From a virus (taxonomy: Duplodnaviria; Caudoviricetes): DNA of 64,000 bases. The notes below the pieces were generated by a model. It was not told the origin of the DNA. It worked only from the letters and a program-made list of their open reading frames with translations, and did not search any database. Below, piece by piece: positions 1-60,039 of the stretch; position 1 is the first letter of the stretch; each line of letters starts with the position of its first letter. The DNA is taken from positions 2,707 to 66,706 of IMG/VR virus record IMGVR_UViG_2854869019_000002; one strand, given 5' to 3'. The position numbers and the translations under genes were made by a program.

Positions 1-454
1 CCGCTTGATCGGCTTCATTGTCGGCGCTTTCCCATCCTTCAGACCAGTCTTTTGCCTTGGATGTATCTTCTGTGAATGGGTTGTCATCTTCATCTACCCC
101 AGCCTGTCTCGCTTCGAAGCCAGCTGCAAAAGGATCGTAACCGGGGTTTGTCAGATACCAAGGCTGTTCCGCTACAGGCTGAGACGAGAGAAGGCGGATA
201 TAGTGCTGCATGGATTGATGAACGGTCGAGCCGTAACAGCCACATTCGCGACCGTCACAGCACAATTGCCGGTCATACTCGCTGTGAGCGTCGATAACTC
301 CGCAAGCCGCTTCCAGACCTTCCCGAAAGCTTTCATCCAACGCCTGCGCACGCGGGGATGGGGCTAGTGTGGACATGAAAGGTAAAGCAGAGTCCTTCAA
401 TTCTATTGGAACAGGATGTTCTCTTCTGCCCTCGAAGTACGATGCAGCTGTCAT
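1..454 (-). CDS. Partial phage protein with C-terminal Rmf/CrpP-like motif (runs off window)
   Basis: Read manually: ATG at 454 overlaps upstream TGA (TGATG), SD GGAGGG, open to base 1; MTAASYFEG...AGFEARQAGVDEDDNPF...KDWSEGWESADNEADQA. Confidence 0.65.
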   Translation of the reverse strand, partial: MTAASYFEGRREHPVPIELKDSALPFMSTLAPSPRAQALDESFREGLEAACGVIDAHSEYDRQLCCDGRECGCYGSTVHQSMQHYIRLLSSQPVAEQPWYLTNPGYDPFAAGFEARQAGVDEDDNPFTEDTSKAKDWSEGWESADNEADQA

Positions 455-681
455 CACGCTGCCCTCCGCTTGAAAGGACGGCGATTGTCGTTGGCTGGCC
501 TAATACGACGCATACGGATCATCTCGCCCGTTTTGCGCGACACTTCATATGCAATGTCTTTGATCTTTGCTGCAGTCGCCGGGTCGCTCACGCGATACCA
601 ACGGGCGATTGAGAAAATCGCTGCGACCGTCGTACCCTGTGCGATGAACTCGGCGGCGGTAAGGATGTGTCTTACAGACAT
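454..681 (-). CDS. Hypothetical early protein ending PANDNRRPFKRRAA
   Basis: ORF preceded by ACACGAGGAG RBS at 690-699. Confidence 0.8.
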   Translation of the reverse strand: MSVRHILTAAEFIAQGTTVAAIFSIARWYRVSDPATAAKIKDIAYEVSRKTGEMIRMRRIRPANDNRRPFKRRAA

Positions 682-803
682 TATTAGTGCTCCTCGTGTG
701 GTGGTGGTGGTAAGCGTGACGACCCGTGGCGTGAAAACGCGCGGATCGTCGATGGTTGGGAATCTTGGGGCTCATCGGCCCCGTCGCTATCTCTTACGAT
801 AAA

Positions 804-1028
804 TCATGTGACGCCGAGGCCTACTGCGCCAACAGTCACGAAGAAACCGATGACCACAGTCATTTCAACGGCTTCTCGCGCTGCATATCGCACCCAAGGC
901 ATGGGTCGGGCGTGCTTCTTTGCGCGGTAGTCAGGTCGGCGCATTGGCTCGTCGCTGCAGGCACGATTCACTTCGGTCTGCGTGTCCGGCTCCATATCTG
1001 CGAGCAATTCCAGCAGGGCGCGGTTCAT
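804..1028 (-). CDS. Hypothetical protein with C-terminal TM helix
   Basis: TAATG-coupled to upstream gene; hydrophobic C-terminus. Confidence 0.7.
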   Translation of the reverse strand: MNRALLELLADMEPDTQTEVNRACSDEPMRRPDYRAKKHARPMPWVRYAAREAVEMTVVIGFFVTVGAVGLGVT

Positions 1029-1357
1029 TACGCAGCCTCCTTAACTTCGGAGACTTCGCTGGCGACATTCTCAACGCTGGCACCTGCCTCGCGGAGTTCA
1101 GCAAAGAGTAAGCCTTGATTGCTGGTAGCAATCGCGCCGCTTGTCTGGAAAACTTCGTATGTTTCTCCGGGGCAGAGCTTGGCGAGGCGTGTTGCCTCTG
1201 CCAGTGCTTGCTCGAACGAGCCGTGTTCATACGGTAGGGAAGTGGCAACGCTAACGCGGCCGGTCTGTTTACCGCGGCGGAATACAAAGAATCCGCCGCC
1301 GATAACTTCGTTCCTGCGAGGTGCTGGCGATCTTCTTCTTCTCGGGGTCTTGCTCAT
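1028..1357 (-). CDS. Hypothetical early protein
   Basis: ACACGAGGAG RBS at 1366-1375; first gene after leftward promoter. Confidence 0.8.
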   Translation of the reverse strand: MSKTPRRRRSPAPRRNEVIGGGFFVFRRGKQTGRVSVATSLPYEHGSFEQALAEATRLAKLCPGETYEVFQTSGAIATSNQGLLFAELREAGASVENVASEVSEVKEAA

Positions 1358-1429
1358 GATTTCTACTCCTCGTGTTTGGTGGATTCAGCAGATTAAGCTG
1401 GTGAGGCCGTCTTCGTGCTACTGCTAACA

Positions 1430-1506
1430 CATATACGATAAACGTATTTTAGTGTCAATTCAAAAATACGAAAATCGTATATGACACAGATATACGATTA
1501 TGCGAT
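1430..1506. promoter_or_regulatory. Left operator cluster (ATACG-N5-CGTAT at 1433-1447, 1466-1480, degenerate 1492-1506) and leftward sigma70 promoter
   Basis: Palindromes ATACGATAAACGTAT and ATACGAAAATCGTAT; minus-strand TTGACA(1458-1453)-N17-TATATG. Confidence 0.8.
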
Positions 1507-1515
1507 ATATCTGCT

Positions 1516-2515: not shown

Positions 2516-3010
2516 TTGGCCAATCATCTTATTTCTATTGATACGGTTGGCCGTGAAATCAAAGCCCGCATTGAGGCTGGTGATAAAGCATTAGATAAAG
2601 CCGAGCAGCATTATATTGCTGCCGGTATTCAGCTTGCTGCTGCAAAGCAACGGCTGTCAGAGACCCGTGAAATGCGATGGTCGGCATTCCTTTTCTCGCA
2701 TGCTCGCCTTAGCGACGAAACCGCCCGCAAGTACATGATGTTGGCAAATGGCGATACTACTCTGGAAGAGATTAGAGAAAAGAATGCCGCTGCCGTTAAG
2801 CGGCACAGAGAAAAGAAATCAGCCTCACAACAACAGCTTTCGGAAAAACCCAATTACGTAATTGGAAGTATTCAACAACAAAATCAACGCACTAGCAATT
2901 CACTAGGCAGAATTACAAGAATTGTCGAAGCCATTCAAGCAGCCGGTGACGACGTATTATCTCAAATTGAAGCGCTGCTTAACATCACAGAGGAGAATGT
3001 GAATGGCTAG
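2516..3010 (+). CDS. Hypothetical helical phage protein (DUF3102-like)
   Basis: GGAG RBS + TTG; AGIQLAAAK...W..FL...LSDETARKYM pattern. Confidence 0.6.
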   Translation: MANHLISIDTVGREIKARIEAGDKALDKAEQHYIAAGIQLAAAKQRLSETREMRWSAFLFSHARLSDETARKYMMLANGDTTLEEIREKNAAAVKRHREKKSASQQQLSEKPNYVIGSIQQQNQRTSNSLGRITRIVEAIQAAGDDVLSQIEALLNITEENVNG

Positions 3011-3365
3011 AGCATTAGTCAAGTCAGATCCCAAAAGCCTAGAAATAGCAATTTCTGACATTAAGGCTGGAAATCGTCCTGTCAGCATCCCGCTTACGGA
3101 TCGTCAACCTGAATATACTGATTATCAAGCGCTCGGATTTGTGCTGCTTGAAACGGTATTGCGTCAAATGACGCCGTGGGAAATCAGCTTCGCCGCAAGC
3201 ATGATAAGCACCAGTCATCCATCTGCCAAGCAGCGCGAGCGCGCAAAAATCATTCTTAAAATTTATCTCGGTCTAGATATTGATGCTGGAACAACGCCAT
3301 CTTCCGGCGTGGCTAACGATAATGCGCCTGCCACCGCATCCACGCGCCGTAAAAAATCAGCCTAA
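3003..3365 (+). CDS. Hypothetical protein ending VANDNAPATASTRRKKSA
   Basis: GAGGAG RBS, coupled ORF. Confidence 0.75.
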   Translation: MARALVKSDPKSLEIAISDIKAGNRPVSIPLTDRQPEYTDYQALGFVLLETVLRQMTPWEISFAASMISTSHPSAKQRERAKIILKIYLGLDIDAGTTPSSGVANDNAPATASTRRKKSA

Positions 3366-3635
3366 CACCCATTCTGCCTTACCAGCAGAACGTCATATCT
3401 GGATGACGACCAAACACGAACAAAAGCCCTACGCCAGATAGTATGGCGAAAACTAAAAAGGCGGAGTTTGTGAGCCGGCACCACCCGCTGCTCGCTCCGC
3501 CCCGTAATAACAGGGCACACGAGGAGGAGCTAAGCTCAACCAAACCCTGTTTTCCTTCGCAGGTACCACCCCGCGCAGGACCACAGATGGCTTCACCAAG
3601 GCTATTTGTCAACCGACACCAACCACGAGGAGAGC

Positions 3636-3929
3636 ATGAAAGATTATGAAACCATAGAAGAAGTGCATCGTATGCACGAGGCAGGAGCTAACCCGACCGA
3701 GATCGGAAATGCGCTTAGCCTACCCAGATCGACGGTAGCTTCAATTTTGCGTCGTCCTATTCCAAAATCTACAGCCGACCGCGTTGTCGTGCGGTGTGTT
3801 TCTAACGGTGGTTGGTCCACGGCCAATCACTGTGTGAGTTATATCGCAATGCCGCGCATTCGAGCGTTGGAAGCCGCGAACGATAACTACGAGCAAAACA
3901 CAAAACAGCCGGGCGAAATCGCAGCCTGA
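3636..3929 (+). CDS. HTH DNA-binding protein ending AANDNYEQNTKQPGEIAA
   Basis: GANPTEIGNALSLPRSTVASILR HTH; CCACGAGGAG RBS before ATG 3636. Confidence 0.8.
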   Translation: MKDYETIEEVHRMHEAGANPTEIGNALSLPRSTVASILRRPIPKSTADRVVVRCVSNGGWSTANHCVSYIAMPRIRALEAANDNYEQNTKQPGEIAA

Positions 3930-5088: not shown

Positions 5089-5877
5089 ATGGCTATCAGC
5101 CTATCAAGCCTCAAGTCTACGAAGAGAAACGACCCGCCAGTCATGCTTTTGTATGGCGTCGACGGCATCGGCAAGACCAGCCTTGCCGCTGAGTTTCCTG
5201 ATCCAATCTATCTTGCAACAGAAGGCGAGCGACCGCCGTCTGATGTTGAAATGGCAACGCCAGGCACGATTGAAAGCTTTGAAGATCTGCTGAATATCAT
5301 TGGCGAGCTGCTCACGGAAGAACATGATCGGCGCACCGTCATCCTCGATAGCGCCGACGGCTTAGAACCGCTTGTCTGGGCTGCGACCTGTGCCCGTCTT
5401 GGCATCACCAGCATTGAGGAAGCCGGGTTCGGTAAAGGCTACGTGGAGGCCGATACCGAATGGAATGAACTGATGTCGGCTTTATCCGCCGTGGCGCAGG
5501 CTGGCATTTATGTGGTCATCCTTGCGCACCCTGAAATCGTGCGCTTCGACAGCCCTACAACCGATCCATATTCACGATACCAGCCTAAGTTGCATAAGCG
5601 AGCAAATGCACTGGTTCGTGAAAAGTCTGACGTCGTCGCATTCATGAACTACCGCGTTTCCATCAAGGAAAAGGAAGTTGCGCGCCAGACAAAGGTCGCA
5701 CATGCTGAGGGCGGCAAAGAACGCCAGATCCATCTGAATGAAGGTGCAGGCTTCAATGCCAAGAACCGCTATTCAATGCCTGATGCTGTTCCATACCGCA
5801 AAGGGCAGGGTTTTACTGAACTGGCGAAGTACTGGCCGGTTGCGAATGACAATGCGGCGCAAAGGGACGCCGCATAA
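5089..5877 (+). CDS. Sak4-like AAA_24 ssDNA-annealing ATPase
   Basis: Walker A YGVDGIGKT, Walker B VILDS, C-terminal AKNR; next to DUF669 SSB. Confidence 0.88.
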   Translation: MAISLSSLKSTKRNDPPVMLLYGVDGIGKTSLAAEFPDPIYLATEGERPPSDVEMATPGTIESFEDLLNIIGELLTEEHDRRTVILDSADGLEPLVWAATCARLGITSIEEAGFGKGYVEADTEWNELMSALSAVAQAGIYVVILAHPEIVRFDSPTTDPYSRYQPKLHKRANALVREKSDVVAFMNYRVSIKEKEVARQTKVAHAEGGKERQIHLNEGAGFNAKNRYSMPDAVPYRKGQGFTELAKYWPVANDNAAQRDAA

Positions 5878-6176: not shown

Positions 6177-6737
6177 ATGGCGAGACTTGGAACGGCGTTT
6201 GACGCCACCCAACACGACACGACGCAGTCGGATTATTCCGAACTGCCGAATGGCACATATAAGATGGAGATCGAAGCGGCTGATGTTACTCCGACATCGA
6301 CCGGCAGCGGCACCGTTTTGAAAACCACAATGAAGGTGCTTGAACCGGCAGATTATGCCGAGCGTAAGATGTTCAGTAACTACAACATTGAGAACAAGAA
6401 TCCGACCGCGCAGGAGATCGGCCAAAAGCAATTTGCCAGCCTTTGCCGCGCGATTGAAGTGTCGGCGGTCGAAGATACTGACGACCTGCTTTTCAAGTCG
6501 TTCACCGTTCGTGTGGCTCTCGGTAAGCCTTCAAAAGACGGCCAGTACCCCGCGCGCGCTGAGATCAAGAAATACTTCTTCCCAGACGAAAACAACGTGC
6601 CAGAAGCGTCAATTGACGTTCAGCAACCTACTTCGCGTCCGGTAGCTGCAAATGACAATAGGGCAGCGGCTGCAAACGATAACAAGCCAGCGCAGGCTGC
6701 AAAAGCTGCGGGCAGCCGTCCTTGGTCTAAGGGCTGA
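6177..6737 (+). CDS. DUF669 family ssDNA-binding protein
   Basis: YSELPNGTY...NYNIENKNPTAQEIG..QFASLCRAI; C-terminal PW. Confidence 0.85.
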   Translation: MARLGTAFDATQHDTTQSDYSELPNGTYKMEIEAADVTPTSTGSGTVLKTTMKVLEPADYAERKMFSNYNIENKNPTAQEIGQKQFASLCRAIEVSAVEDTDDLLFKSFTVRVALGKPSKDGQYPARAEIKKYFFPDENNVPEASIDVQQPTSRPVAANDNRAAAANDNKPAQAAKAAGSRPWSKG

Positions 6738-6801
6738 TCTATAACTGGCTACCGGTGCTTTCGCGCCGGTGGCCAACCGAACCGAACACGAGGAGTTTTG
6801 T

Positions 6802-7605
6802 ATGGCTTATGTATCCGAGCGCAGACAGATCGATGGTGCGCTTCCAATACGCTTTGACGGCGCCTTCGTTGCTGGCGGCGCAGTAACGAGCGTATTTACA
6901 GGCGCTGAAATCAATGACGTTGATCTCTATTTCAAATCTCGCCGCGCATTCGAGCGAGCTGTTTATGATGCATATGAGGAAGGCTTATGGTGCGTTGCAG
7001 CCAGTAAGCGCGCGGTGACGTTCACCGATCAGAGCAACAATATTGCTCAGCTGATGTATTTTGACTTCTTCCCAAGTGCCCAGTCTATTTTTGACGCCTT
7101 TGATTTTACCGTTTGCATGGGCGCGGTGGATCTGGACGCGGGCGCCAATAGCCCCGACTCCGGATTTGCCTTTCATCCTGACTTTCTGAAGCACAACAGC
7201 CAGCGCTTTCTGAAATTCAATGCTGGTACACGTTATCCACTCGCGTCAGCTACCCGCGTCCTGAAATACCAACAGCGCGGCTACACCATTGGGAAAGGCG
7301 ACATCATGAAAGTTGCCTTGGCCGTTCGCGGCGTGAAGATCGAAACTTGGGAAGACCTCAAGGACCAGATCGGCGGCGCTTACGGTGACAAGGTTGTACT
7401 TGGAAACGAGGACAAACCTTTCACCATTGAAGCGGCTATCGAGGCGCTGACTGTTGAGGATGCCGAAAGTGAACCATGGGTGCAACCGGTCAACGATAAT
7501 ATGCCGGGTAATGCCGAAGCGCTTCTGGAACACCTTGCCGATCTCAATGGCATCGAATTTGTTCCGCCTGAACTTGATGAAGACGGCTGGCCTCTAGCGG
7601 CCTAA
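6802..7605 (+). CDS. Nucleotidyltransferase-fold protein (poly(A) polymerase/CCA-head-like)
   Basis: FVAGGAV..., NDVDLYF (DxD), FDFTVC; ACACGAGGAG RBS before ATG 6802. Confidence 0.7.
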   Translation: MAYVSERRQIDGALPIRFDGAFVAGGAVTSVFTGAEINDVDLYFKSRRAFERAVYDAYEEGLWCVAASKRAVTFTDQSNNIAQLMYFDFFPSAQSIFDAFDFTVCMGAVDLDAGANSPDSGFAFHPDFLKHNSQRFLKFNAGTRYPLASATRVLKYQQRGYTIGKGDIMKVALAVRGVKIETWEDLKDQIGGAYGDKVVLGNEDKPFTIEAAIEALTVEDAESEPWVQPVNDNMPGNAEALLEHLADLNGIEFVPPELDEDGWPLAA

Positions 7606-7662: not shown

Positions 7663-8721
7663 ATGCGGGTAACGCTTGATCGAGCACAGCTTGCGCACGC
7701 CTTGTCGACCGTGACAAAGGCAGTTGAGGCCAGAACGACAATTCCAATTCTTGGCAACGTGCTTTTGTCCGCGGACAATGGACAGTTGAGCATCACCGGT
7801 ACAAATCTTGATCTGGAAATCAGCACCAGCTTGCCGGTTCTGGACAGCCAGGACGGCACTGTAACTGTTGCAGGCAAGCTGCTTCTGGATATTGCCAAGA
7901 AGGCAACGGGCGACGTTATGCTGGAAGCCGATGGCGATCATCTGGTCATCAAATCTGGAAAGAGCCGTTTCAAGCTGGATACGCTACCAGCGGCTGACTT
8001 CCCGTCCTTCAATCGCGGAAGCTTCGATACCACGATCGAGTTCGATCTGGCATCGCTCGTGCAGACTGTCCAGTTTGCAGTAAGCACCGACGAGACCCGC
8101 TTTTATTTGAACGGCGTCTTTCTGGAAGCAAAGGACGGCCATATCGTTGCCACGGCGACAGATGGTCATCGCCTAGCGTCGACACGTATCGAGCAGGAAG
8201 CATCGTTTGCGTCGGTCATTCTGCCCAACAAACTGCTGTCATTGCTACCGACCGGCGTTGTGTCGGTGTCGCTGTCGTCAAACAAGATCATGGTCGAAAG
8301 CGGTTCTACTGTAATCGTGTCGAAACTCGTCGACGGCACATATCCGGATTACGAGCGGGTTATTCCAAAGCCATCAGAGCGTGTCGCTACGCTGTCGGCT
8401 AAAGCACTGCGCGAAGCCGTCGGCCGCACATCAGTTATCGCCAATGAACGGGGCAGGGGCGTGCGCTTCTCGTTTGCATCTGATGCCCTGACGCTGAATG
8501 TGGCCAACCCAGATCGCGGTGATGCGACTGAGGAGATGGAAGTTTCATTTAGCGCAGAGCCGCTGACGATTGGATTCAACGGTCAGTATGTCAACGATCT
8601 CATGGCGGCATTTGGCGCTGATGAAGTCACGATGTCGATGGCCGACTCCGGTTCGCCAGCATTGGTAACATGCGCAAGCAGGCCGGGATATAGGTGCGTA
8701 ATTATGCCGATGCGGGTGTAG
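7663..8721 (+). CDS. dnaN: DNA polymerase III beta sliding clamp (phage copy)
   Basis: TIPILGNVLL, GTNLDLEI, DETRFYLNGV, ATDGHRL, C-terminal VIMPMRV. Confidence 0.95.
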   Translation: MRVTLDRAQLAHALSTVTKAVEARTTIPILGNVLLSADNGQLSITGTNLDLEISTSLPVLDSQDGTVTVAGKLLLDIAKKATGDVMLEADGDHLVIKSGKSRFKLDTLPAADFPSFNRGSFDTTIEFDLASLVQTVQFAVSTDETRFYLNGVFLEAKDGHIVATATDGHRLASTRIEQEASFASVILPNKLLSLLPTGVVSVSLSSNKIMVESGSTVIVSKLVDGTYPDYERVIPKPSERVATLSAKALREAVGRTSVIANERGRGVRFSFASDALTLNVANPDRGDATEEMEVSFSAEPLTIGFNGQYVNDLMAAFGADEVTMSMADSGSPALVTCASRPGYRCVIMPMRV

Positions 8722-10622: not shown

Positions 10623-12386
10623 ATGCTAACCTTACGAAACTACCAGTCAGAAGCAATAGACGCCGTTTTCGACTATTGGCAAGAGGAGGCAGGCAATCCG
10701 CTTGTTGATCTTGCGACAGGCACCGGCAAGTCGATGGTTATGGCGTCTCTTATCCAGCGCCTGGTTGAAGGCTGGCCAGATATGCGCGTGATGGTCATTA
10801 CTCATGTGGCGGAGCTGATTCAGCAGAATTATCTTGAGTTGCTCGGCATCTGGCCGTTTGCACCGGCAGGCATCTATTCTGCTGGCCTTGGTCGTCGAGA
10901 TGCGCGCAGTCAGATCGTGTTCGCGGGCATTCAAACGGTGCACAATAAGACCGCGCAGATAGGGCACATCGACGTCCTTATGGTCGATGAGTGCCATACA
11001 ATTCCCGTGAACAGCAACACGATGTATCGAAAGTTCATTGATGCGCTGCTTGAGATCAATCCAGATATGAAGATTCTCGGCTTGACCGCAACGCCTTATC
11101 GTCTGGATAGCGGTCGCCTTGATGAAGGTGAGGATCGGTTGTTTGACCGTGTCGTTCATACCTATGGCGTTGCTGATGGAATCCGCGACGGCTTCCTTGC
11201 TCCTCTCACGAGCAAGCCTACCGCCACGGAATATGACGTGAAAGGCGTGGGTCGTCTCGGCGGTGACTACAAGCAGGGTGCGCTTGAAGCGGCGATTAAT
11301 AAAGCCGACCTTAACGAGGCGGTCGTGTCTGAGATCGTTGCAAAAGGTGCAGATCGTCGTTCATGGCTTTGCTTCTGTGCCGGCGTCAAAGCCGCTCTGG
11401 ACGTGCGCGACGTGATAAGATCGCGGGGCATTACGTGCGAGGCAGTGACAGGCGATACGCCAAAAGAAGAACGCCGTCGCATTCTTGAGGACTTCAAAGC
11501 CTACCGTATCCAGTGCGTGACAAACAATTCAGTTCTTACTACAGGATTTAATCATAAGGGCGTTGATTTAATTGCATTTTGCCGACCAACTTTGTCCTTA
11601 AGCTTGTATGTACAAATGGCCGGTCGAGGCACTCGTCCACTCTATAAGGCCGGTGCGCCGCTGGATACGGTTGAGCAACGCTTAGATGCTATTGCTGCTG
11701 GACCGAAGCGGAATTGCCTTGTGCTGGACTTCGCCAAGCTTGTCGATCGGCATGGGCCAGTTGATATGGTTGAGCCTAAAGCCCCGAGCGCCGGCACTGG
11801 CGATCCGCCAATCAAGATCTGCCCTCAAGAGCCTGATGCTTTCGGGATTACAGGTTGCGGCGAGAAAGTGCATATCTCTCTGATGAAATGCCCATGCTGC
11901 GGCTATGACTTTCCTCCGAATGAGGAAGAGAAATTAACCCGACAGGCTGCGGACGTACCGATTGTCAGCACGGCAGAAGCCGAATGGCGCAAGGTGACAG
12001 GCAGGACGTTCCATTTCCACGAAGGCAAGGGCGACAAGCCCCCGTCTGTCAAATGCAGCTACATCGCAGGCTATACGCAGATTAATGAATGGCTGTGTCC
12101 GCAGCATACCGGATTTGCGCAAAGTAAGGCGCATCGATGGTGGACGCAACATGGAGGCCAGCGGCCGTTTCCAAAGACGGTTTTGGAATGGCTTGAACGC
12201 CAGCGTGAACTGCTCACTACTGACGAAATCAGCGTCGTGCCAAACGGTAAATATTGGAATGTGAAAGACGTGCGGGCAGGCCTGATGCTCGGAGCGGATG
12301 CCGACAACGACAATGTGCCGGAGCCTGTGAACGACAATGTTTCTATCGGACTTTCGGAGCTGCTCGACGACGAGATTCCGTTCTAA
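10623..12386 (+). CDS. SF2 DEAH-type helicase (RadD/YejH-like) with Zn finger
   Basis: LRNYQ, ATGTGKS, DECH, TAT, QMAGRGTR, CP..C..CPCCG. Confidence 0.92.
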   Translation: MLTLRNYQSEAIDAVFDYWQEEAGNPLVDLATGTGKSMVMASLIQRLVEGWPDMRVMVITHVAELIQQNYLELLGIWPFAPAGIYSAGLGRRDARSQIVFAGIQTVHNKTAQIGHIDVLMVDECHTIPVNSNTMYRKFIDALLEINPDMKILGLTATPYRLDSGRLDEGEDRLFDRVVHTYGVADGIRDGFLAPLTSKPTATEYDVKGVGRLGGDYKQGALEAAINKADLNEAVVSEIVAKGADRRSWLCFCAGVKAALDVRDVIRSRGITCEAVTGDTPKEERRRILEDFKAYRIQCVTNNSVLTTGFNHKGVDLIAFCRPTLSLSLYVQMAGRGTRPLYKAGAPLDTVEQRLDAIAAGPKRNCLVLDFAKLVDRHGPVDMVEPKAPSAGTGDPPIKICPQEPDAFGITGCGEKVHISLMKCPCCGYDFPPNEEEKLTRQAADVPIVSTAEAEWRKVTGRTFHFHEGKGDKPPSVKCSYIAGYTQINEWLCPQHTGFAQSKAHRWWTQHGGQRPFPKTVLEWLERQRELLTTDEISVVPNGKYWNVKDVRAGLMLGADADNDNVPEPVNDNVSIGLSELLDDEIPF

Positions 12387-14617: not shown

Positions 14618-15190
14618 ATGCAGGAAGAGCTACCCAGCGGGCCTTTTGGCTGCGTCCTTGCGGACCCGCCATGGTCTTTCAGAACGTACGGAAAAAAAGA
14701 CGTTGCGCCGGCACGAGGCCGTCAGCCTTACGGTGTAATGTCACTTGACGATATCAAAGCGCTGCGTGTCGAACAGGTATGCGCTCGCGACTGTTTGTTG
14801 TTTATGTGGACGGTTTCGCACCTGCAGGCCGCTGCAATCGATGTGGCTGCCGCGTGGGGATTCAAACCTGTCAGTGTTGCTTTTGTCTGGGACAAAGGCC
14901 GCATGGGCATGGGTTACTGGACACGGCAGGAAGTAGAAATCTGTCACTTGTTCAAGCGGGGCAAGCCTCGCCGTCTATCGAAGGGCGTGCGCTCCCTTAT
15001 CAAGGCTCCGCGCCGCGAGCATTCCCGCAAGCCCGATGAGCAATACGGACGCATCGAGAAGCTGGTCGACGGTCCTTATCTCGAGCTCTTCGCTCGTCAA
15101 GCGTGGCCGGGTTGGTCTTCATGGGGCAACGAGTCTGAGAAGTATGTGGCTGCCAATGATAACCAAGATTTGCTGGGGAGGGTGGCTTAA
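14618..15190 (+). CDS. MT-A70 family adenine methyltransferase
   Basis: ADPPW, LFMW, REHSRKP, LELFAR, WGNE. Confidence 0.93.
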   Translation: MQEELPSGPFGCVLADPPWSFRTYGKKDVAPARGRQPYGVMSLDDIKALRVEQVCARDCLLFMWTVSHLQAAAIDVAAAWGFKPVSVAFVWDKGRMGMGYWTRQEVEICHLFKRGKPRRLSKGVRSLIKAPRREHSRKPDEQYGRIEKLVDGPYLELFARQAWPGWSSWGNESEKYVAANDNQDLLGRVA

Positions 15191-16014
15191 TGGCGAAACT
15201 CACGAAGGCTCAAGCAAAGGCGCACTCTCAAGCAGTTGCCATCCTTCAGCAAGAACGGTTGTCGGAAGATGATAAGGAATTCGTATATCGCAACTGGAAC
15301 GAGGGCGCGAACCACGTAAACGGCGCAGCAGGTGCTTTCTTCACCCCATTCGATATGGCTTTTGATTTTGCGATAGATGCTGGCGGCGGTCGCATTATTG
15401 ACCTGTGTGCTGGGATTGGAATGCTATCTTACGCAATTTGGCAGCGTAGCAGTTTCAACGATAATAGGCCGCAAATTACCTGTGTAGAGCGTAATGCCGA
15501 GTATCTTGAGGTCGGGAAAAAGTTGCTGCCAGAAGCAGAATGGATTCACGCTGACGTATTTGACGTTCTCGATATGGGACTGAGGCACTTCGACACTGCG
15601 ATTAGCAACCCTCCGTTCGGAAACATCAAGCGGACCAGAAACTCTCCGAGATACAGCGGCAAGGATTTCGAATTCCACGTAATTGATATTGCGTCCCACC
15701 TAGCAGACTACGGCACGTTCATCGTCCCCCAAATGTCGGCAGGCTTCAATTATTCCGGACGGAATAGCTATGAACGTCAGACCAGTGGCAAAGCCGTTAA
15801 GTTCCAGGAGTTGACCGGTCTGCATTTCGATACAGGCTGCGGCGTCGATACTGCTTATTTCATCGATAAGTGGAAAGGCGTCTCTCCAATGTGCGAGATC
15901 GTTTGCGTTGAATTTACAGATGCGCCCGTCGTTGCCCAGAAAGTGCAACCGAACCCAGCAAACGACAATGTCCAAAAACCAGTGCAACACAGCCTTTTCG
16001 GTGACGCAGCATGA
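15190..16014 (+). CDS. N6-adenine (gamma-type) DNA methyltransferase
   Basis: GAFFTP, IDLCAGIG, ISNPPFG. Confidence 0.88.
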   Translation: MAKLTKAQAKAHSQAVAILQQERLSEDDKEFVYRNWNEGANHVNGAAGAFFTPFDMAFDFAIDAGGGRIIDLCAGIGMLSYAIWQRSSFNDNRPQITCVERNAEYLEVGKKLLPEAEWIHADVFDVLDMGLRHFDTAISNPPFGNIKRTRNSPRYSGKDFEFHVIDIASHLADYGTFIVPQMSAGFNYSGRNSYERQTSGKAVKFQELTGLHFDTGCGVDTAYFIDKWKGVSPMCEIVCVEFTDAPVVAQKVQPNPANDNVQKPVQHSLFGDAA

Positions 16015-16344: not shown

Positions 16345-17772
16345 ATGAAAAACGAGAACGACAATAACGCACTGCGCTTTTTGTCCGTGTGTAGCGGGAT
16401 TGAAGCAGCTTCGGTTGCGTGGAATCCACTCGGATGGAAGGCAGTTGCTTTTAGCGAGATTGAGAAATTCCCTTCAGCTGTGCTGGCGCATCATTATCCG
16501 GATGTACCGAATCTTGGAGATTTCACCAAGATCGATACGTCCGCACTCGGACGCGTCGATATCCTCTGCGGTGGCACGCCATGTCAGGCGTTTTCCATCG
16601 CGGGAGCGCGCAGGTCGCTTGACGATGCACGCGGTAACTTAACCCTAGCCTTTGTGGAGCTTGCACATGAGCTTGCAGCAGGAAATGGACTTCGCAACGT
16701 CGTCTGGGAAAACGTTCCCGGCGTTCTCTCGACAAAAGACAACGCCTTCGGATGTTTCCTGGCAGGACTTGTCGGAGCAGATGATCCCTTGCAGTCGCCA
16801 GACGGGCCTAAATGGCCAAACTCAGGTATGGTTGCCGGGCCGCGGGCACGGGCCGCTTGGCGGATTCTCGACGCTCAATATTTCGGATTGGCCCAACGAC
16901 GCAAGCGTGTCGTCGTTATCGCAGATTTTGGAAACGGCGCAGATCCCGCAGCGGTTTTATTTGAGCGCAAGAGCTTGTCAGGGAATACTCCGCCGAGCCG
17001 AGAAACGGGGAAAGACATTGCCCCAACAATTAGCGCACGCCCTACAGGCGGTGGCGGACTTGGAACAGACTTCGATTTAGATGGTGGGTTGATTTCATCA
17101 ACAGGCAGTGTGGCACACTGCCTGAATGCTGGTGGCATGGGGCGACAGGACTATGAAACTGAGACGATGATTGCCTTCGCTCAGAATACTCGCGACGAAG
17201 TGCGCATCGTAAATGGTGATGGTTTAATAGCTGGTGCACTCGCGGCCGAACCGGGAATGAATCAGCAAACCTATCTAGCTTTCGACTGCAAGGCATCAGG
17301 GCGAAGTGGTTTCGGGGTTGGCGAAATTAGCCCAACGTTGAGGGCCATGAATAGTGTTGATGGCAATCAGAATGCGGGTGGTCAGGTGGCTGTTTGCGCA
17401 CCTGTCGCTTGGTCCAGCATGCCACAGAACAGCGGCAAGGATTACAAGGCGCTTCAGGTCGACGTCGCGCAGCCTTTGATGGCTGGTGGACCTGTAGGCG
17501 GCAATCAGGGTGGCGACTACATCCAGCAGCAATGGGCCGTCCGCCGTCTTACACCTACCGAGTGCGAGCGCCTGCAAGGTTTCCCTGACGAATACACCAA
17601 TATCCCTTGGCGCAACAAACCTAATAGCCCTGACGGTCCGCGCTACAAGGCTCTGGGTAATAGCTGGGCAGTGCCGAAGTTCCGTTGGATTGGCGAAAGG
17701 ATTGCTCGCCTGATGCCGATGTCACCAGCCAATGACAATCATTGCACAGAGCCAGAACGCCTCTGCGCATAA
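16345..17772 (+). CDS. DNA (cytosine-5)-methyltransferase
   Basis: SVCSGIEA, GGTPCQAFS, WENV, QRRKR, RRLTPTECERLQGFP, YKALGNS. Confidence 0.95.
   Translation: MKNENDNNALRFLSVCSGIEAASVAWNPLGWKAVAFSEIEKFPSAVLAHHYPDVPNLGDFTKIDTSALGRVDILCGGTPCQAFSIAGARRSLDDARGNLTLAFVELAHELAAGNGLRNVVWENVPGVLSTKDNAFGCFLAGLVGADDPLQSPDGPKWPNSGMVAGPRARAAWRILDAQYFGLAQRRKRVVVIADFGNGADPAAVLFERKSLSGNTPPSRETGKDIAPTISARPTGGGGLGTDFDLDGGLISSTGSVAHCLNAGGMGRQDYETETMIAFAQNTRDEVRIVNGDGLIAGALAAEPGMNQQTYLAFDCKASGRSGFGVGEISPTLRAMNSVDGNQNAGGQVAVCAPVAWSSMPQNSGKDYKALQVDVAQPLMAGGPVGGNQGGDYIQQQWAVRRLTPTECERLQGFPDEYTNIPWRNKPNSPDGPRYKALGNSWAVPKFRWIGERIARLMPMSPANDNHCTEPERLCA
16667..17080 (+). CDS. Overprinted (+1 frame) M.EcoHK31I beta-like polypeptide within the C5-MTase
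   Basis: GGAG at 16656-59 then ATG; SLSQILE..IPQRFYLS..ILRRAEKRGKTLP..L..AL resembles the EcoHK31I beta chain. Confidence 0.65.
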   Translation: MSLQQEMDFATSSGKTFPAFSRQKTTPSDVSWQDLSEQMIPCSRQTGLNGQTQVWLPGRGHGPLGGFSTLNISDWPNDASVSSLSQILETAQIPQRFYLSARACQGILRRAEKRGKTLPQQLAHALQAVADLEQTSI

Positions 17773-22911: not shown

Positions 22912-23496
22912 ATGACACGAAGACGTGCGCTGAACGGCGCGTCATCCGGCAAGCCAAAAACCACAACGCAAATTGTCCGGATCAATGGCGTCCGAACAAT
23001 CATCACGACACGCAACGGCAAGGTCACAACAAAAGCAGCCCTGCCTTTAGAATGGGAACTGCAAGCTGCACAAGTTCGCAGCCTGCGCAGATTGCCAGAG
23101 TACGTCCACACAGCGCGAGACGTTCGACCGGGAACATTCACACTAGCTGGAGATCAAAACGCAGCCAAGCGCGGCCCCAAGGCAAGAGCCGAGGCATTAG
23201 CGGCAGGTCTTACACCAGGCGAGGCCGACGTGAGGATTTACATCTACGGCGGTGTGCTGCGCCAGATTGAGAACAAGGTCGGCAAAGCCAAGCTTGAACC
23301 AAGCCAGATAACCCGCCATCCGTTGCTCGATGCTCTTGGCTTTCCAGTCGTGGTGGTCAGGGCAGTTACCGAGGATGATGCAGCAGCGCAGGCAGTGAGG
23401 CTGGTTAAAGGCTGGCTGCTGGAGGCTGCTGTGCCGGAAGCGGCGAATGAAAACCAACCAACACCACATGGGGAGAACATTAATGACGCAGATTAA
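22912..23496 (+). CDS. VRR-NUC-like nuclease
   Basis: EWELQ, GLTPGEAD, IENK, LEPSQ..H..L..LGF.V.VVR. Confidence 0.8.
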   Translation: MTRRRALNGASSGKPKTTTQIVRINGVRTIITTRNGKVTTKAALPLEWELQAAQVRSLRRLPEYVHTARDVRPGTFTLAGDQNAAKRGPKARAEALAAGLTPGEADVRIYIYGGVLRQIENKVGKAKLEPSQITRHPLLDALGFPVVVVRAVTEDDAAAQAVRLVKGWLLEAAVPEAANENQPTPHGENINDAD

Positions 23497-24265
23497 ACCA
23501 ACGATCGCGACGACAGCCATTCACGGTTGGCACATCCCTGAACGTACCCCAGACGAAAGGCAAGCCGCCAGAGAACGTATACGGCTTGAACGCGCCCGTG
23601 AGGTCAAGGCGCTAACAAAAATGCGCCGACGCATTGAAAAGCGCCAGTCTATCGGCGACGATTGGGATGGTCGCGCTGCGAATGACAACATCGCGTGGCC
23701 TCTGGCTACCGCGCTAATTAAGGAAGGCAACACTGACCTTCTGAAATACGCAATGATGTATCGTCGCATTCACACGGCAGCTAAAAGCAATGCGGTCCTT
23801 GGCGGGTCTTCAGTCATGCTAGGGGATGGGATGGCGATCGATCGGCATATTCATGTCCGACCGAATGGCAGCGTCGCTTACAAGCATGTCAGGCAATCTA
23901 CTGCCGCCAGCGTGGATATTCCATCTCGCAAGAAAAGTATCACCGACTCCGAAACGCAGCTTTCATCTGATAAATCCGAAAGCGGATACACCAGTGTACC
24001 GAAGCCGTGGAGGGGCGATGTGCCTGTCAATGAAATGATTGACGCGCAACATAAGCTTGGTCGGCTGCAATCCGCATTGGGCCATCTGTGTGAGCCGTTC
24101 GAACTAGCCTGCATCGACGGGAAGACATTAGCGGAGGTTGGAACAACAGTCGGAATTGCCAATCGAAGCGGAGCGCAAGGTGCAGGACGTGCGCTGGTCC
24201 ATACGGCATTAATAACGCTGCGAGATATTCTAGGAAATTTGCAGCGACAAGACATAGCCGCCTGA
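23483..24265 (+). CDS. Putative late transcription regulator (Q-like position, C-terminal HTH)
   Basis: Last early gene before the late region; ACIDGKTLAEVG helix motif. Confidence 0.6.
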   Translation: MTQIKPTIATTAIHGWHIPERTPDERQAARERIRLERAREVKALTKMRRRIEKRQSIGDDWDGRAANDNIAWPLATALIKEGNTDLLKYAMMYRRIHTAAKSNAVLGGSSVMLGDGMAIDRHIHVRPNGSVAYKHVRQSTAASVDIPSRKKSITDSETQLSSDKSESGYTSVPKPWRGDVPVNEMIDAQHKLGRLQSALGHLCEPFELACIDGKTLAEVGTTVGIANRSGAQGAGRALVHTALITLRDILGNLQRQDIAA

Positions 24266-54597: not shown

Positions 54598-55893
54598 ATG
54601 TCCAATGACAGACAGCGGGCGAACACGCGCCTCTCACAAGAAGAGCTATTGCGCCGTGTTGCTGCATATCAGCAGCACGGTACACTTACGAAGGCTGCGC
54701 TCGCATGTGGCGTTAAGAAGTCCACCTTTCACGACAGCATCAAGCGTGCGGCTGAGCTTGGCTTGATGGGCCCAAAAGCAACGCTGCCGGGCTACGCGAT
54801 TAAAAGCCTGACAGAGACGCCAAACGGCACATATATGCGCCAGACGAAAGAAGCTGGCCCGGTCTATGAGGCCACGGCCGGTTTGGCGGTCAAAGGCAAG
54901 ACGACGCTTGTTAACAGCGAAGGCCGCATAGTCACCCAGCACATCATGGAACGTGAGGACGCCGACCAACAGCGCGCCACTATCACGGCTATGGTTGCCG
55001 CCCTTAAAGAAGAGTTGCCTCGCGTATCGATCATGCCGGCTCCGAAGGGCCGTCGCGAGGACCTGTTGAATCAGTTCACGATCACCGACAACCATTTCGG
55101 CATGATGTCGTGGCGCGAAGAGACCGGCAGCGATTACGATCTGCGGATTGCTGAGCAGTTGTTGCTCGATTGGTTCTCAGCAGCGGTAGCGCAAGCGCCC
55201 GACGCTCACACGGCCATTCTGGCGCAGCTCGGCGACCTGATGCATCACGATGCGCTTGAAAGCGTCACGCCTGCACACAAGCACGTTCTGGACGCTGATA
55301 GCCGACTGCAGAAAGTCATTCGCATTGTGATTCGTACGATCCGTCGCATAATCGATATGCTGTTGCAGAAGCACGAGCGGGTTCATGTCGTGATGGCGTC
55401 GGGCAATCACGACCCTGCCTCATCTGCATGGCTGCGTGAAATGCTGGCCGTTATGTACGAAGACGAGCCGCGCATCACCGTCGATAATTCACCATCACTC
55501 TATTACGCGTTCGAGTGGGGCAGCACGATGCTAGCCTATCACCATGGCCATAAGCGAGGTGTTGCGAATATCGAAGGCACGATTGCTGGCATGTTCCGCG
55601 GAATGTTTGGCCGGTCGCTACAAGCCTATGTCCATATTGGACACAGACATAGCGACGAGGCTAGAAAGGGCACGCTGATGTATGTCGAACAGCACGAAAC
55701 GCTTGCGGCTCCTGATGCGTATGCGGCTGGAGGTGGTTGGCTGTCGGGCAGATCAGCCAAGCGGATAACTTATAGCAAAGAGTTCGGTGAGGTCGGTCGC
55801 GATATTCTCCGGCCTGAAATGGTGCAGGGTGCTTCGCGCGTGCCAGTGGCTGCGAATGATAATGTGGCAAGTGAGATGAGGGCAGCAGCATGA
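54598..55893 (+). CDS. HTH + calcineurin-like metallophosphoesterase
   Basis: DNHFG, GDLMH, GNHD, HHGH, GHRH. Confidence 0.85.
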   Translation: MSNDRQRANTRLSQEELLRRVAAYQQHGTLTKAALACGVKKSTFHDSIKRAAELGLMGPKATLPGYAIKSLTETPNGTYMRQTKEAGPVYEATAGLAVKGKTTLVNSEGRIVTQHIMEREDADQQRATITAMVAALKEELPRVSIMPAPKGRREDLLNQFTITDNHFGMMSWREETGSDYDLRIAEQLLLDWFSAAVAQAPDAHTAILAQLGDLMHHDALESVTPAHKHVLDADSRLQKVIRIVIRTIRRIIDMLLQKHERVHVVMASGNHDPASSAWLREMLAVMYEDEPRITVDNSPSLYYAFEWGSTMLAYHHGHKRGVANIEGTIAGMFRGMFGRSLQAYVHIGHRHSDEARKGTLMYVEQHETLAAPDAYAAGGGWLSGRSAKRITYSKEFGEVGRDILRPEMVQGASRVPVAANDNVASEMRAAA

Positions 55894-58102: not shown

Positions 58103-58501
58103 ATTGAAGATGAAATTTAATTAATTTATTAATACTTAGACTAGTCCGGATATGGCGATTTCGTTTTTTTGGATTATCCGGTGAATTTATTTACTTGTGT
58201 GAAGGCTTTCGTTTTGGTCTTTTGGACCAAAGGGCTTTATTTTTCTGAAGCTGAAAGATCTTGCGGATTGAGGCAAATAAAAAAACCGGAACATCTGCTA
58301 ACATCACGGGGCACGGAAACGTTCACGACCCAGCTTCCACCGAGCTGCGCGTCAAATACTTTATCAAAATATGACCGTTCGCCACTTCGACTTCTTGCCA
58401 ACCTGCTGCCTTGGCATCTGCAATCAAGTCGGGGACGCCGGGTATAAGCCCGCCTGTTTTTGTCCTAGTATGTCGCTCCACCCTTTTTGGGCTTTGTTCA
58501 G

Positions 58502-58684
58502 TTAATTCTTTGACCGATCGGGATATGGTTCATCAGGCAGCTTCTTCTTAGGATTGCCCGGAGCGTTTGATTGTTCATGAGTAGGTTTTTCGTGCTGGTC
58601 CTGGGGTTCAACCGGAGAAGGATCGACTGTTGTATGTTCTCTATGAAGGTCAGGGTCTGACCAGGGGCTTTTCTTTTTTTCCAT
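58502..58684 (-). CDS. Small disordered protein
   Basis: GGAGG RBS, 60 aa. Confidence 0.6.
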   Translation of the reverse strand: MEKKKSPWSDPDLHREHTTVDPSPVEPQDQHEKPTHEQSNAPGNPKKKLPDEPYPDRSKN

Positions 58685-58732
58685 TTAATCCTCCCGAAAT
58701 TAGAGAACCCCGCCTAAGCGGGGTTCAAGGAA

Positions 58733-59230
58733 CTAGGCAGCCTTCAAGTTAATTTTAGTTTCGGCTAATTTGGTCAAGTCGTGATCAGTTTGACCCTCTT
58801 CTTGCAGTGTTGCGTCAAGAAGCTTTGCTACATCCTTGTGACCAAGTTCAGTGGCCCATCGTTTAAGCGTGCCATATCTTGTAATTTCGTAATGTTCGAC
58901 TGCCTGTGCGGACGATATCAAACCGGCGTCAAGCGCCTTTGTACCCTTGAATTCGTCGATAATTTCCTCACCCTCAGCGATAATACCTTCAATAGCATCG
59001 CAGGTTTTACCCTGAGCGCGCTTTCCGAGGAGTTCGAACACCTGCTGAAGCCGTTCGATGTGCTCCTGAGTTTGTTCCTTATGCTTTTCGAATGCTGCTT
59101 TGAGTTCAGGCGCGACAGCCGCTCTTGCCATCTTTGGCAGTGCCTTGACGATCTTTCGCTCGGCATAATAAATGTCCTTGAGCGTGTCGTAGAACAAATC
59201 GTCGAGCGTCTTTTCCTTGGAATTCGGCAT
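58733..59230 (-). CDS. YciE/YciF (DUF892) ferritin-like stress protein
   Basis: LKDIYYAE, HIERL, AQAVEHYEI.RYGTL. Confidence 0.93.
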   Translation of the reverse strand: MPNSKEKTLDDLFYDTLKDIYYAERKIVKALPKMARAAVAPELKAAFEKHKEQTQEHIERLQQVFELLGKRAQGKTCDAIEGIIAEGEEIIDEFKGTKALDAGLISSAQAVEHYEITRYGTLKRWATELGHKDVAKLLDATLQEEGQTDHDLTKLAETKINLKAA

Positions 59231-59270
59231 TTTTCTCTCCATTAGAGTTTATGCCCCTGCATGGAGAGTC

Positions 59271-59295
59271 AACGTTCATGGATGCTCTTGGTTCC
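59271..59295 (-). promoter_or_regulatory. EcfG-type promoter
   Basis: Perfect GGAAC-N16-CGTT. Confidence 0.75.
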
Positions 59296-59364
59296 TCGGC
59301 CGAAGCCTAAGATTTTGTTTTGCCGAAGTTCAGATAAACTGCTCATTCTAGAAAAAATAAACTC

Positions 59365-60039
59365 CTAAATCAGTGAAGTCTGTTCCTCGTTATCGTTGCT
59401 TGGCGTCAGATCGATCAAATCTGCATCGGGCAAAGGCTTCTGCATATCCTTGGCTTCATCCCAAGGAGCGCGAAGCCACGTGTCGATTTCTTCTGTTGTG
59501 CGCAGAATGACCGGCATTGCCTTTGGGTGAACAGGCTTGACCACGGCATTCGGTTCAGTTGTCAGGAAGCCGAAGATATCGACCTCGACCGGTCCCTCTT
59601 TTTTCTTCCGCACACCTTTCCATGTGGTCCAGATGCCTGCGAACGCAAAGAGCGGCCTTTCCTCGTTGAGGGCGAACCAATGCAAAGGCTTTCGCTTCGT
59701 CTTCGAGTCAAGCTCTTGCCCGTATTCTGAAAAAGAAGTTGCTGGAACAACGCAGCGGCTCTCGACGCCTTGCCAGCGTCGCCAATGCGGGGAGGTGAGA
59801 TTGCGAATGTTCGTCACACCGCTATCAGCTTCGCCCTTCACGTAAATAGGCGGGGTAGGCATGCCCCAACGAAGGTGTGCAAGCTCATGCTCGCCGTCAG
59901 GAAGATTGCGCAGAACCGGCGCCGGATAATCGGGATACACGTCGAGCTGCGGATCAAAACGGTTGGTCACATCACCGAATTTTGGGAACAGACGGCGCAT
60001 GGCCTCATGATTGGTCGTGATGTTATAAAGATTACACAT
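59365..60039 (-). CDS. SOS response-associated peptidase (SRAP/YedK family)
   Basis: MCNLY start, RWG, RCVVPA..F.E, FAFAGIW, HPKAMPVIL. Confidence 0.93.
   Translation of the reverse strand: MCNLYNITTNHEAMRRLFPKFGDVTNRFDPQLDVYPDYPAPVLRNLPDGEHELAHLRWGMPTPPIYVKGEADSGVTNIRNLTSPHWRRWQGVESRCVVPATSFSEYGQELDSKTKRKPLHWFALNEERPLFAFAGIWTTWKGVRKKKEGPVEVDIFGFLTTEPNAVVKPVHPKAMPVILRTTEEIDTWLRAPWDEAKDMQKPLPDADLIDLTPSNDNEEQTSLI

Follow-up and report, generated by a model that had tools for sequence, protein, structure and literature searches.

Why would unrelated early proteins of a single prophage end in the same short peptide, and why would this peptide resemble the tag that host transfer-messenger RNA (tmRNA) adds to stalled translation products? 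The question is raised by a 64,000-nucleotide stretch of a Caudoviricetes record (IMG/VR record IMGVR_UViG_2854869019_000002, positions 2,707 to 66,706), referred to here, at its full length, as the window. The window is part of contig C17 of a 4.9-Mb genome (G000) from a soil-type alphaproteobacterium, and a single prophage of about 65 kb takes up nearly its whole length. Several of its early proteins carry tails that start with (A)ANDN and mostly finish with alanine. The tails are real and far beyond chance. They are probably hard-coded copies of the host ssrA tag, that is, a bipartite degron that joins a docking site for the adaptor SspB-alpha to a C-terminal signal for ClpX.

Tails in the window

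The window was scanned in six frames, and every coordinate range was re-translated. All 14 tails listed by the initial annotation were recovered in frame at the named genes. They are given below without the stop that follows them.

454..495, minus strand: tail ANDNRRPFKRRAA of a putative 75-amino-acid early-left open reading frame (ORF; 454-681); no Pfam or PHROG match
3312..3365, plus strand: tail ANDNAPATASTRRKKSA of a 120-amino-acid early protein (3003-3365); no family match
3873..3929, plus strand: tail AANDNYEQNTKQPGEIAA of a 107-amino-acid protein (3606-3929); weak, sub-threshold helix-turn-helix match
5842..5877, plus strand: tail ANDNAAQRDAA of the Sak4-like AAA_24 ATPase (5089-5877); Pfam AAA_24 covers residues 17-228 of 262
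6645..6737, plus strand: tail of the DUF669 single-stranded DNA-binding protein (SSB; 6177-6737), with AANDN twice and the end PWSKG, without terminal alanine (translation, Pfam)
7489..7605, plus strand: tail of a nucleotidyltransferase-like protein (6769-7605), VNDN followed by 32 residues and LAA (end WPLAA; PHROG, translation)
12303..12386, plus strand: tail of the SF2 helicase (10623-12386), with DNDN, VNDN, and the end DDEIPF (translation, Pfam)
15149..15190, plus strand: tail AANDNQDLLGRVA of the MT-A70 methyltransferase (14618-15190); the Pfam MT-A70 match stops at residue 172 of 190
15958..16014, plus strand: tail ANDNVQKPVQHSLFGDAA (ANDN..SLFGDAA) of the N6 methyltransferase (15190-16014); also contains a clamp-binding-like QHSLF
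17728..17772, plus strand: tail ANDNHCTEPERLCA of the C5 cytosine methyltransferase (16345-17772; translation, Pfam)
23440..23496, plus strand: variant AANEN tail of a VRR-NUC-like protein (22912-23496), without terminal alanine (translation)
23675..23689, plus strand: internal AANDN at residues 77-81 of 272 in a 16-3 p107-like regulator (23447-24265) that ends in DIAA (translation)
55849..55893, plus strand: tail AANDNVASEMRAAA of a DNA-repair exonuclease/metallophosphoesterase (54598-55893); the phrog_704 match stops at residue 409 of 431
59365..59403, minus strand: end PSNDNEEQTSLI of the SRAP protein (59365-60132; PSNDN...SLI), a doubtful member

The 454-681 gene call is uncertain because the frame overlaps a plus-strand ORF and matches no family. 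The SRAP tail has neither a preceding nor a terminal alanine and may be a chance occurrence. The name VRR-NUC comes from a blastp match of the window protein to a gene with that annotation in Rhizobium phage RHph_TM3_3_14B (TM3); its only match of its own is to phrog_824, a family of unknown function. The C5 methyltransferase has, besides its C-terminal ANDN, an NDN at residues 5-7 of its N-terminus (MKNENDNNA, 16345-16371). Related phages have similar M-x-x-[AES]-NDN starts, including MNPSNDN in the HNH protein p084 of phage 16-3 and MDAANDN and MDAENDN in phage AP-16-3.

The tails start with [AVP]ANDN in eight proteins, VNDN or DNDN in two, AANEN in one, and SNDN in one. Twelve proteins have xNDN in their last 40 residues, and of these, six end in AA and three in SA, VA, or CA. 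The variable spacer is 5-12 residues long, with one outlier of 32. NDN is absent from the ORFs between 24.3 and 51.5 kb, which hold the head and tail genes. The initial claim that head and tail proteins lack the motif is thus correct for the window; it fails in relatives, whose portal proteins carry it. Likewise, its description of the motif as a C-terminal tail on non-structural proteins suits the tails of the window but not the relatives, in which the motif also lies at N-termini, in linkers, and in portals.

Enrichment and protein-level signal

The enrichment was computed on a greedy, non-overlapping ORF set; the greedy choice excluded the 454-681 ORF from the counts. Within 40 residues of the C-terminus, [AVPS]NDN is present in 11 of 90 window ORFs and in 3 of 4,987 in the remaining genome (Fisher odds ratio 231, p = 1e-17), as expected from the proposed enrichment over the host proteome. 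None of the three ORFs outside the window is tag-like. In an unbiased scan of all 4-mers in the window proteome, ANDN ranks first, with 9 proteins vs 0.16 expected. It is also the top 4-mer in 16-3, TM3, and AP-16-3, so that the four phages have 9-13 proteins each vs 0.06-0.16 expected. Proteins ending in AA number 10 of 90 in the window and 139 of 4,987 elsewhere; the genome background is 2.7% for a terminal AA and 12.9% for a terminal A.

The codons vary. At 68 NDN sites in the four phages, alanine is encoded by GCC (23), GCA (14), GCG (11), and GCT (1), asparagine by AAC (55) and AAT (13), and aspartate by GAC (51) and GAT (17). Each ANDN in the window falls in the reading frame of a long ORF in the six-frame scan. 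Synonymous variation at all wobble positions, together with this restriction to the coding frame, places the signal at the protein level and not in the DNA, as the initial annotation had argued from a smaller set of codons.

These data bear directly on the possibility that the tails have no function of their own. They could be by-products of nucleotide signals at gene ends (ribosome-binding sites, stop/start overlaps, sigma-factor promoters, or recombination linkers) or low-complexity linkers spread by recombination. Four of 11 tails do overlap the start of the next gene (ATGA or TAATG), and in relatives the motif is found close to the ends of genes, C-terminally as well as N-terminally. The other seven tails have no such overlap, each of the four wobble positions shows synonymous variation, and no other frame of a long ORF contains the motif. 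In one carrier family, described below, 118 of 120 homologues at 65-93% identity keep the motif around a free middle, and a reversed DNA pattern has 0 matches in IMG/VR vs at least 120 for the forward one. Stop/start overlap was also considered as the cause of AA ends and rejected, as host genes end in AA in 25 of 936 overlapping and 112 of 4,047 non-overlapping cases. The corresponding prophage counts are 4 of 27 overlapping and 8 of 67 non-overlapping stops. A nucleotide-level origin is largely refuted, and the absence of any function for the tails is hardly tenable.

Resemblance to the host ssrA tag

The peptide that tmRNA appends is not encoded by the tagged gene; it comes from the reading frame of tmRNA itself and is preceded by the alanine that charged tmRNA carries. 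The host has a two-piece tmRNA gene on contig C21, with the tag ANDNKAQGYALAA as read by ARAGORN, and the locus is confirmed by the Rfam alpha_tmRNA model. Because of the alanine on charged tmRNA, the peptide appended in this host starts with AANDN. For comparison, 29 tmRNA tags were read from 30 loci in different families of the same order. Every one of the 29 starts with ANDN and ends in AA. They are 12-13 residues long, with 6-7 variable residues separating NDN from AA, and the distance from the first asparagine to the C-terminus is 11-12.

The phage tails share the invariant residues and the length of these real tags. Their start is identical to the invariant start of the host tag (A-ANDN), their free C-terminus is Ala-Ala or xA, and their spacing is tag-like. 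In the one protein that was modelled, the exonuclease, the tail is also an unstructured, accessible extension. The tails cannot be products of trans-translation, since they lie in frame within phage ORFs, precede ordinary stops, and have middles unlike the tmRNA template.

A second tmRNA call in the genome, a 619-nucleotide permuted gene (G000:C27:537978-538596) with the tag GPTDSNIGKALRVEA, was made by ARAGORN only. The Rfam model finds only the gene on contig C21, and the second call is likely false.

The host encodes both the adaptor and the unfoldase that the initial annotation had called upon. The SspB-alpha gene (C21:144490-145017; Pfam PF04386, E = 2.7e-47) resembles the solved SspB of Agrobacterium (2NYS, 2.5e-56) and those of Caulobacter (2QAS and 2QAZ), and its product has the conserved C-terminal peptide VVSLDxFRKK. 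The ClpX gene lies at C18:543066-544256. No second SspB-like gene was found by Pfam search of the genome, and none in the window. Judged by the names of its SspB homologues, the host is close to the Ochrobactrum group, which is now classified in Brucella. The tmRNA gene and sspB are within 3.5 kb of each other (G000:C21:141474-145017), with a TetR-like gene between them.

Conservation and structure of the exonuclease tail

Selection on a tail can be followed in the exonuclease family. Its 120 best homologues in the protein collection share 65-93% identity and carry names from Ochrobactrum/Brucella, Agrobacterium, Pseudaminobacter, and a Sinorhizobium phage. NDN is present within the last 26 residues in 118 of the 120, and AANDN in 114. 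The first asparagine is 10-12 residues from the C-terminus in 114, compared with 11-12 in native tags. The tail ends in VA in 63 homologues and in AA in 48, and the residues between NDN and the end vary freely. Conservation around a free middle points to purifying selection that maintains AANDN, the length, and the terminal alanine. The same three features are kept in bacterial tmRNA tags.

The tail is a disordered add-on according to an AlphaFold model built with 32 sequences. The predicted fold stops near residue 408, and residues 410-431 have a predicted local distance difference test score (pLDDT) below 50. Orthologues from E. coli phage K1ind1 and Rhodobacter phage RcSalem end in ...PEM(L/V)(G/S) without a tail, and the window protein extends 22 residues past that end point. 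In other carriers, Pfam and PHROG profile matches likewise stop ahead of the tails.

Distribution in related phages

The closest characterised relative of the prophage is Rhizobium phage 16-3, which has the same early gene order. Identity to 16-3 is 82% for Sak4 (tblastn), 71% for Cas4, 67% for the exonuclease, 46% for the clamp, and 44% for the helicase; the integrase arm and head genes are more distant than the early genes. The shared gene set and order place the prophage among the 16-3-like temperate siphophages. ANDN occurs in 13 proteins of 16-3 (0.12 expected), and in 10 and 11 proteins in the sequenced parts of TM3 and AP-16-3, respectively.

Carriers differ between these phages. The SSB, the helicase, and the exonuclease keep ANDN in all four, and the helicase also keeps two motif copies and a DDE[IV]PF end in the three relatives. 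Sak4 has ANDN only in the window; its orthologues in 16-3, TM3, and AP-16-3 end in VA or AA without it. Cas4 ends in AANDNEPGST[KN]A in 16-3 and AP-16-3, and the shorter Cas4 of the window has no ANDN. As judged from these sequences, tails are gained and lost between orthologues while the enzyme fold stays. The N6 methyltransferase ends in NLFGDAA in 16-3 and in ANDNSPQLSLFGDAA in TM3. The internal site of the p107-like regulator, WDG[RT]AANDNIAWPL, is conserved in 16-3. Two 16-3 proteins, Xis (MRVAANDN) and p057 (MTHSPANDN), have an N-terminal ANDN, and further proteins of the relatives have it in linkers.

The DNA pattern for AANDN also clusters in prophage-sized stretches of same-genus genomes, with 9 sites in 51 kb (G028) and 5 in 52 kb (G004). 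The tails are a clade-wide trait that includes the model phage 16-3 and are not private to this prophage. The initial view of a prophage-wide trait is accurate for the window; as a peculiarity of this prophage, it does not hold. In a genome from another family (G055), two AANDN-coding sites lie 27 nucleotides apart (C4:312515-312556), like the double tails of the SSB and helicase. A tmRNA gene (C4:318815-319174) is located 6 kb away.

Breadth in IMG/VR and limits of the motif

A DNA pattern encoding AANDN-x6-AA-stop matched at least 120 IMG/VR contigs, and the reversed-pattern control matched none. Among the 80 loci examined, 62 have protein tails, with 101 tail-bearing ORFs in about 40 sequence clusters, and 25 loci have at least two. 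The carriers include N6/N4 and C5 methylases, a Toprim-DnaB primase-helicase, an SNF2 helicase, and HNH nucleases, as well as portals of the HK97-like and lambda families.

The remaining 18 loci were rejected as protein tails and removed from the counts. They have low GC and seed frames shorter than 70 codons, and ARAGORN finds a tmRNA in nine. The presence of tmRNA genes among the matches means that the pattern cannot separate a phage tail from a real tag. These loci (within L045-L122, e.g., L048, L067, and L104; GC 34-46%) carry two-piece tmRNA genes with tags such as (V)AANDNNVDLALAA, and they are presumably prophages excised with an ssrA attachment site.

Two wider generalities were rejected. 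The first is a spread across alphaproteobacterial phages, because Brucella phage Tb, Dinoroseobacter phage R4C, and RcSalem (over 50,000 of its 67,718 bases) lack ANDN; the trait is found in the 16-3-like clade and not in these three. The second is an extension to the E. coli-type tag, as a pattern coding for AANDENYA has only four IMG/VR matches. One 37-codon frame accounts for two of the four, a third lies inside a 712-residue ORF, and the fourth is at a contig end. The last (L040, 13733-13755, at the end of a 13.8-kb contig) is a frame ending in VKAANDENYALAA, a perfect E. coli-type tag with an extra alanine, which could be a protein tail or a tmRNA gene.

Other host motifs copied by the lineage

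The restriction to one phage lineage, with the motif absent from three other alphaproteobacterial phages, raises the question of whether AANDN is read by a phage protein rather than by the host. A phage hub, for example the phage's own beta clamp or SSB, would then gather DNA enzymes at the replisome, and the likeness to the tag would reflect convergence or be secondary. Clamps are usually bound through C-terminal peptides, most carriers act on DNA, and all four motif-bearing phages encode their own clamp, which in the window is:

7663..8721, plus strand: phage beta sliding clamp; all three domains of Pfam DNA_pol3_beta

The canonical beta-clamp-binding motif is QL[SD]LF. As a clamp-binding motif itself, ANDN was rejected because it is polar and unlike this consensus. 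A clamp-binding-like pentapeptide lies instead between ANDN and GDAA in the N6 methyltransferase (QHSLF in the window, QLSLF in TM3, NLF in 16-3), and suggests, from its sequence, that the enzyme is tethered to the phage clamp. The presence of a separate clamp motif after ANDN argues that ANDN is not the clamp signal. A phage hub also fails to explain why the terminal AA or VA is conserved and why the spacing resembles that of a tag, and it does not account for carriers such as portals of two unrelated families, a protease, MazG, Xis, and Cro-like proteins. Nor does the genome encode a second SspB-like protein that might serve as the reader. The trypsin-like protease of 16-3 was considered as a reader and rejected, as it has no homologue in the window. 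A phage-encoded hub is, on balance, highly unlikely.

A second borrowed motif is found in the helicase. Acidic-IPF is the C-terminal tip of SSB proteins, and the helicase ends in LDDEIPF (12369-12386), with its last six residues equal to the tip of the host SSB (..RDLDDEIPF; G000:C18:534484-535098). These two are the only ORFs in the genome with an acidic-IPF end; the DUF669 SSB of the phage ends in PWSKG. Like the tails, the SSB tip and the clamp motif are host C-terminal motifs copied by this phage, but they differ from ANDN in motif and partner, and ANDN is a separate signal. A lineage that borrows host C-terminal motifs in this way makes a copied ssrA tag the more natural explanation of ANDN.

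Proposed mechanism and points against it

If the tails are copies of the ssrA tag, (A)ANDN would dock the phage protein onto the substrate-binding domain of host SspB-alpha, by analogy with natural tags, and the C-terminal peptide of SspB-alpha would tether the adaptor to the ClpX N-domain. The free C-terminal AA, VA, CA, or SA, located 5-7 (up to about 15) residues past ANDN, would be engaged by the ClpX pore, and ClpXP would then unfold and degrade the tailed protein. The E. coli adaptor is described as binding the first seven tag residues, with a disordered C-terminal segment that binds the ClpX N domain (PMC9963277). The same source describes SspB and ClpX contacting the tag simultaneously before hand-off (PMC9963277).

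Phage methyltransferases, nucleases, and recombination and replication proteins would thereby become intrinsically short-lived. The carriers are mostly enzymes that would harm a lysogen if they lingered (three methyltransferases, several nucleases, a helicase, and a recombination ATPase), which suggests that the tails shorten lifetimes. Leaky or left-over early enzymes could be cleared in lysogens and after the lysogeny decision. In full induction, tailed proteins would accumulate only if synthesis outpaced the capacity of SspB and ClpXP. We infer SspB binding, ClpXP degradation, and a timer or noise-filter role from this analogy. The routing through host SspB/ClpXP proposed by the initial annotation is partly supported by the sequence comparisons above.

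Several observations weigh against a simple C-terminal degron. In the window, 3 of the 12 tails end without alanine (SSB in KG, helicase in PF, and SRAP in LI), and in the SSB and helicase this misfit is shared by all four phages. ANDN is more than 20 residues from the C-terminus in 8 of 14 cases in 16-3, 8 of 11 in TM3, and 7 of 14 in AP-16-3. The portal of 16-3, which needs stability in virions, has a full tail with the end ANDNQEDEAEAA, and IMG/VR portals have tails too. ANDN is absent from ORFs of at least 50 residues in the whole genomes of Tb and R4C, and from RcSalem over the 50,000 of 67,718 bases covered. Since the hosts of these phages presumably have the pathway, the motif appears to be a habit of one lineage, and a phage-encoded partner would account for this too. 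Finally, the mechanism assumes, in line with work on Caulobacter, that NDN is the contact of SspB-alpha.

Some of these points can be accommodated. Assembled or bound proteins, such as portal rings, might be spared because the tail is buried. Where ANDN lacks a terminal alanine (the SSB, the helicase, and the N-terminal and linker sites), it may tether the protein to SspB without a strong ClpX signal, and such tethering could produce slower turnover or simply occupy the adaptor.

Occupancy could also be the main purpose. The motif would still bind SspB and AA would still bind ClpX, but the selected role would be to saturate adaptor and protease, so that tagged phage proteins out-compete ssrA-tagged products and, by loading ClpXP, cell-cycle regulators. 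The lytic host would be reprogrammed, and turnover of phage proteins would be a side effect. Each phage has 10 to 14 ANDN sites, many of them N-terminal or in linkers, and the SSB and helicase, both likely abundant, keep one or two copies without a ClpX-type end in all four phages. SspB is described as a dimer with two binding sites, which would suit two-copy tails (PMC9963277). A single dedicated inhibitor, however, would cost the phage less than tailing about 40 protein families, and the tails favour methylases and nucleases, the enzymes that are harmful when they linger in a lysogen. Moreover, in the exonuclease family ANDN is no more tightly conserved than the spacing and the terminal xA, a pattern that argues for productive delivery to ClpX. 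Jamming as the selected role is therefore unlikely.

The degron copy remains the probable explanation. A much broader proposal would treat the tails as a clade-wide, portable lifetime code. Either both tag halves or the docking half alone would link about 40 protein families to the SspB-ClpXP queue and form a threshold device for the lysis-lysogeny switch, and in lytic growth the tails would also jam host trans-translation clean-up and ClpXP-dependent cell-cycle proteolysis. This extension is doubtful.

Prophage organisation

The boundaries of the prophage are defined by an exact direct repeat of 49 bp next to the integrase gene.

2.85-2.9 kb left of the window start (G000:C17): attL, the partner 49-bp exact direct repeat of attR
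61011..62201, plus strand: tyrosine integrase of the prophage (phrog_1 integrase, E = 5e-58), adjoining attR
62264..62312, plus strand: attR, a 49-bp exact repeat of the 3' end of tRNA-Lys(TTT)

With attL outside the window and attR near its right end, the prophage measures about 65 kb and occupies window positions 1-62312. To the right of attR, at 62602-63338, are an HD-domain ORF and a 16-3 p050-like gene, the latter a second copy of the one at 56114-56446 within the prophage. Another related element that used the same tRNA site probably left this segment behind.

Early and DNA-metabolism genes run rightward from about 3 kb to 24 kb, as assigned by Pfam and PHROG. They begin with the Sak4-like ATPase, the DUF669 SSB, the nucleotidyltransferase-like protein, and the phage's own clamp. 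A Cas4-type exonuclease, the SF2 helicase, another exonuclease, and the MT-A70, N6, and C5 methyltransferases follow, and the set closes with a PrimPol-helicase, the VRR-NUC protein, and a sigma-like late regulator. Between PrimPol and VRR-NUC, at 20635-22546, an outer-membrane beta-barrel protein and an HWE/PAS histidine kinase are encoded, which are likely morons. A tRNA-Met (CAT) gene at 25567-25643 separates early from late genes. Head, tail, and lysis genes extend from 26.7 to about 52 kb, and the accessory arm beyond them carries the metallophosphoesterase-type exonuclease at 54.6 kb.

Significance and comparison with known systems

It is textbook knowledge that ClpXP controls individual phage proteins and that C-terminal signals can resemble ssrA, and engineered ssrA tags are a standard tool. 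No earlier description of a phage in which numerous genes encode both parts of the host tag was found in the literature searched, which included the AP-16-3 genome paper; supplements and most subscription journals were outside its scope. Papers that pair SspB with phages were set aside as prior descriptions, because in them SSPB is a phylogenetic method or SspBCDE is a phosphorothioate defence system.

If the tails work as proposed, they would represent a natural, genome-wide viral use of the ssrA/SspB/ClpXP pathway, in which the lifetimes of many proteins are set by a copied quality-control tag. They would add a new layer of lysis-lysogeny control to the long-studied phage 16-3. They would also explain how lysogens tolerate phage methylases and nucleases where the cell cycle depends on methylation state and ClpXP. 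For synthetic biology, they would offer a natural library of graded alphaproteobacterial degradation tags. Because the lineage copies the SSB tip and a clamp motif as well, it should be a good system for studying mimicry of short host motifs in phages.

The closest known system is the alphaproteobacterial tmRNA/SspB-alpha/ClpXP pathway itself, which shares with the phage tails the AANDN front, the variable spacer, the free AA end, and a length of 12-14 residues. Its natural tag is added co-translationally to stalled products, whereas the phage tails are encoded in about 12 native genes, with a different middle in each protein. In Caulobacter, the tmRNA tag is AANDNFAEEFAVAA (PMC9393093).

Among phages, lambda O, MuA, Mu repressor variants, and P1 Phd are ClpXP substrates. 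In these cases too, the lifetime of a phage protein is set by host ClpXP through terminal signals, but they are single proteins with idiosyncratic signals, in contrast to the one two-part tag placed here on many proteins across a clade. To our knowledge, no report describes a classical phage substrate that copies the part of the ssrA tag bound by the adaptor. MuA is named as a native ClpXP substrate (PMC5415555).

A native protein with both kinds of signal is RseA(1-108). This is a host protein whose SspB site is unlike the ssrA tag and whose degron is exposed only after cleavage. It is described as a natural SspB-delivered ClpXP substrate of E. coli (PMC5587285). RseA(1-108) resembles the tailed phage proteins in combining an SspB-docking site with a C-terminal Ala-Ala-type ClpX signal in a native protein. 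Its docking site need not belong to a tag, as with the N-terminal and linker ANDN sites. The adaptor pathway is also touched by Pseudomonas phage pf16, whose gp18 is described as a phage-encoded SspB homologue (PMC5587285). That phage brings the adaptor, whereas the phages described here bring the ligand of the adaptor, with no SspB-like gene in the window.

A further counterpart is man-made. Engineered ssrA variants are used to destabilise reporters and deplete proteins (PMC8138137; PMC9382460), including fusions in Caulobacter (PMC9393093). Like the phage tails, they are appended to arbitrary proteins to confer dependence on ClpXP and SspB, and their middle and end are tuned for rate. The phage tails would appear to be the natural evolution of the same device.

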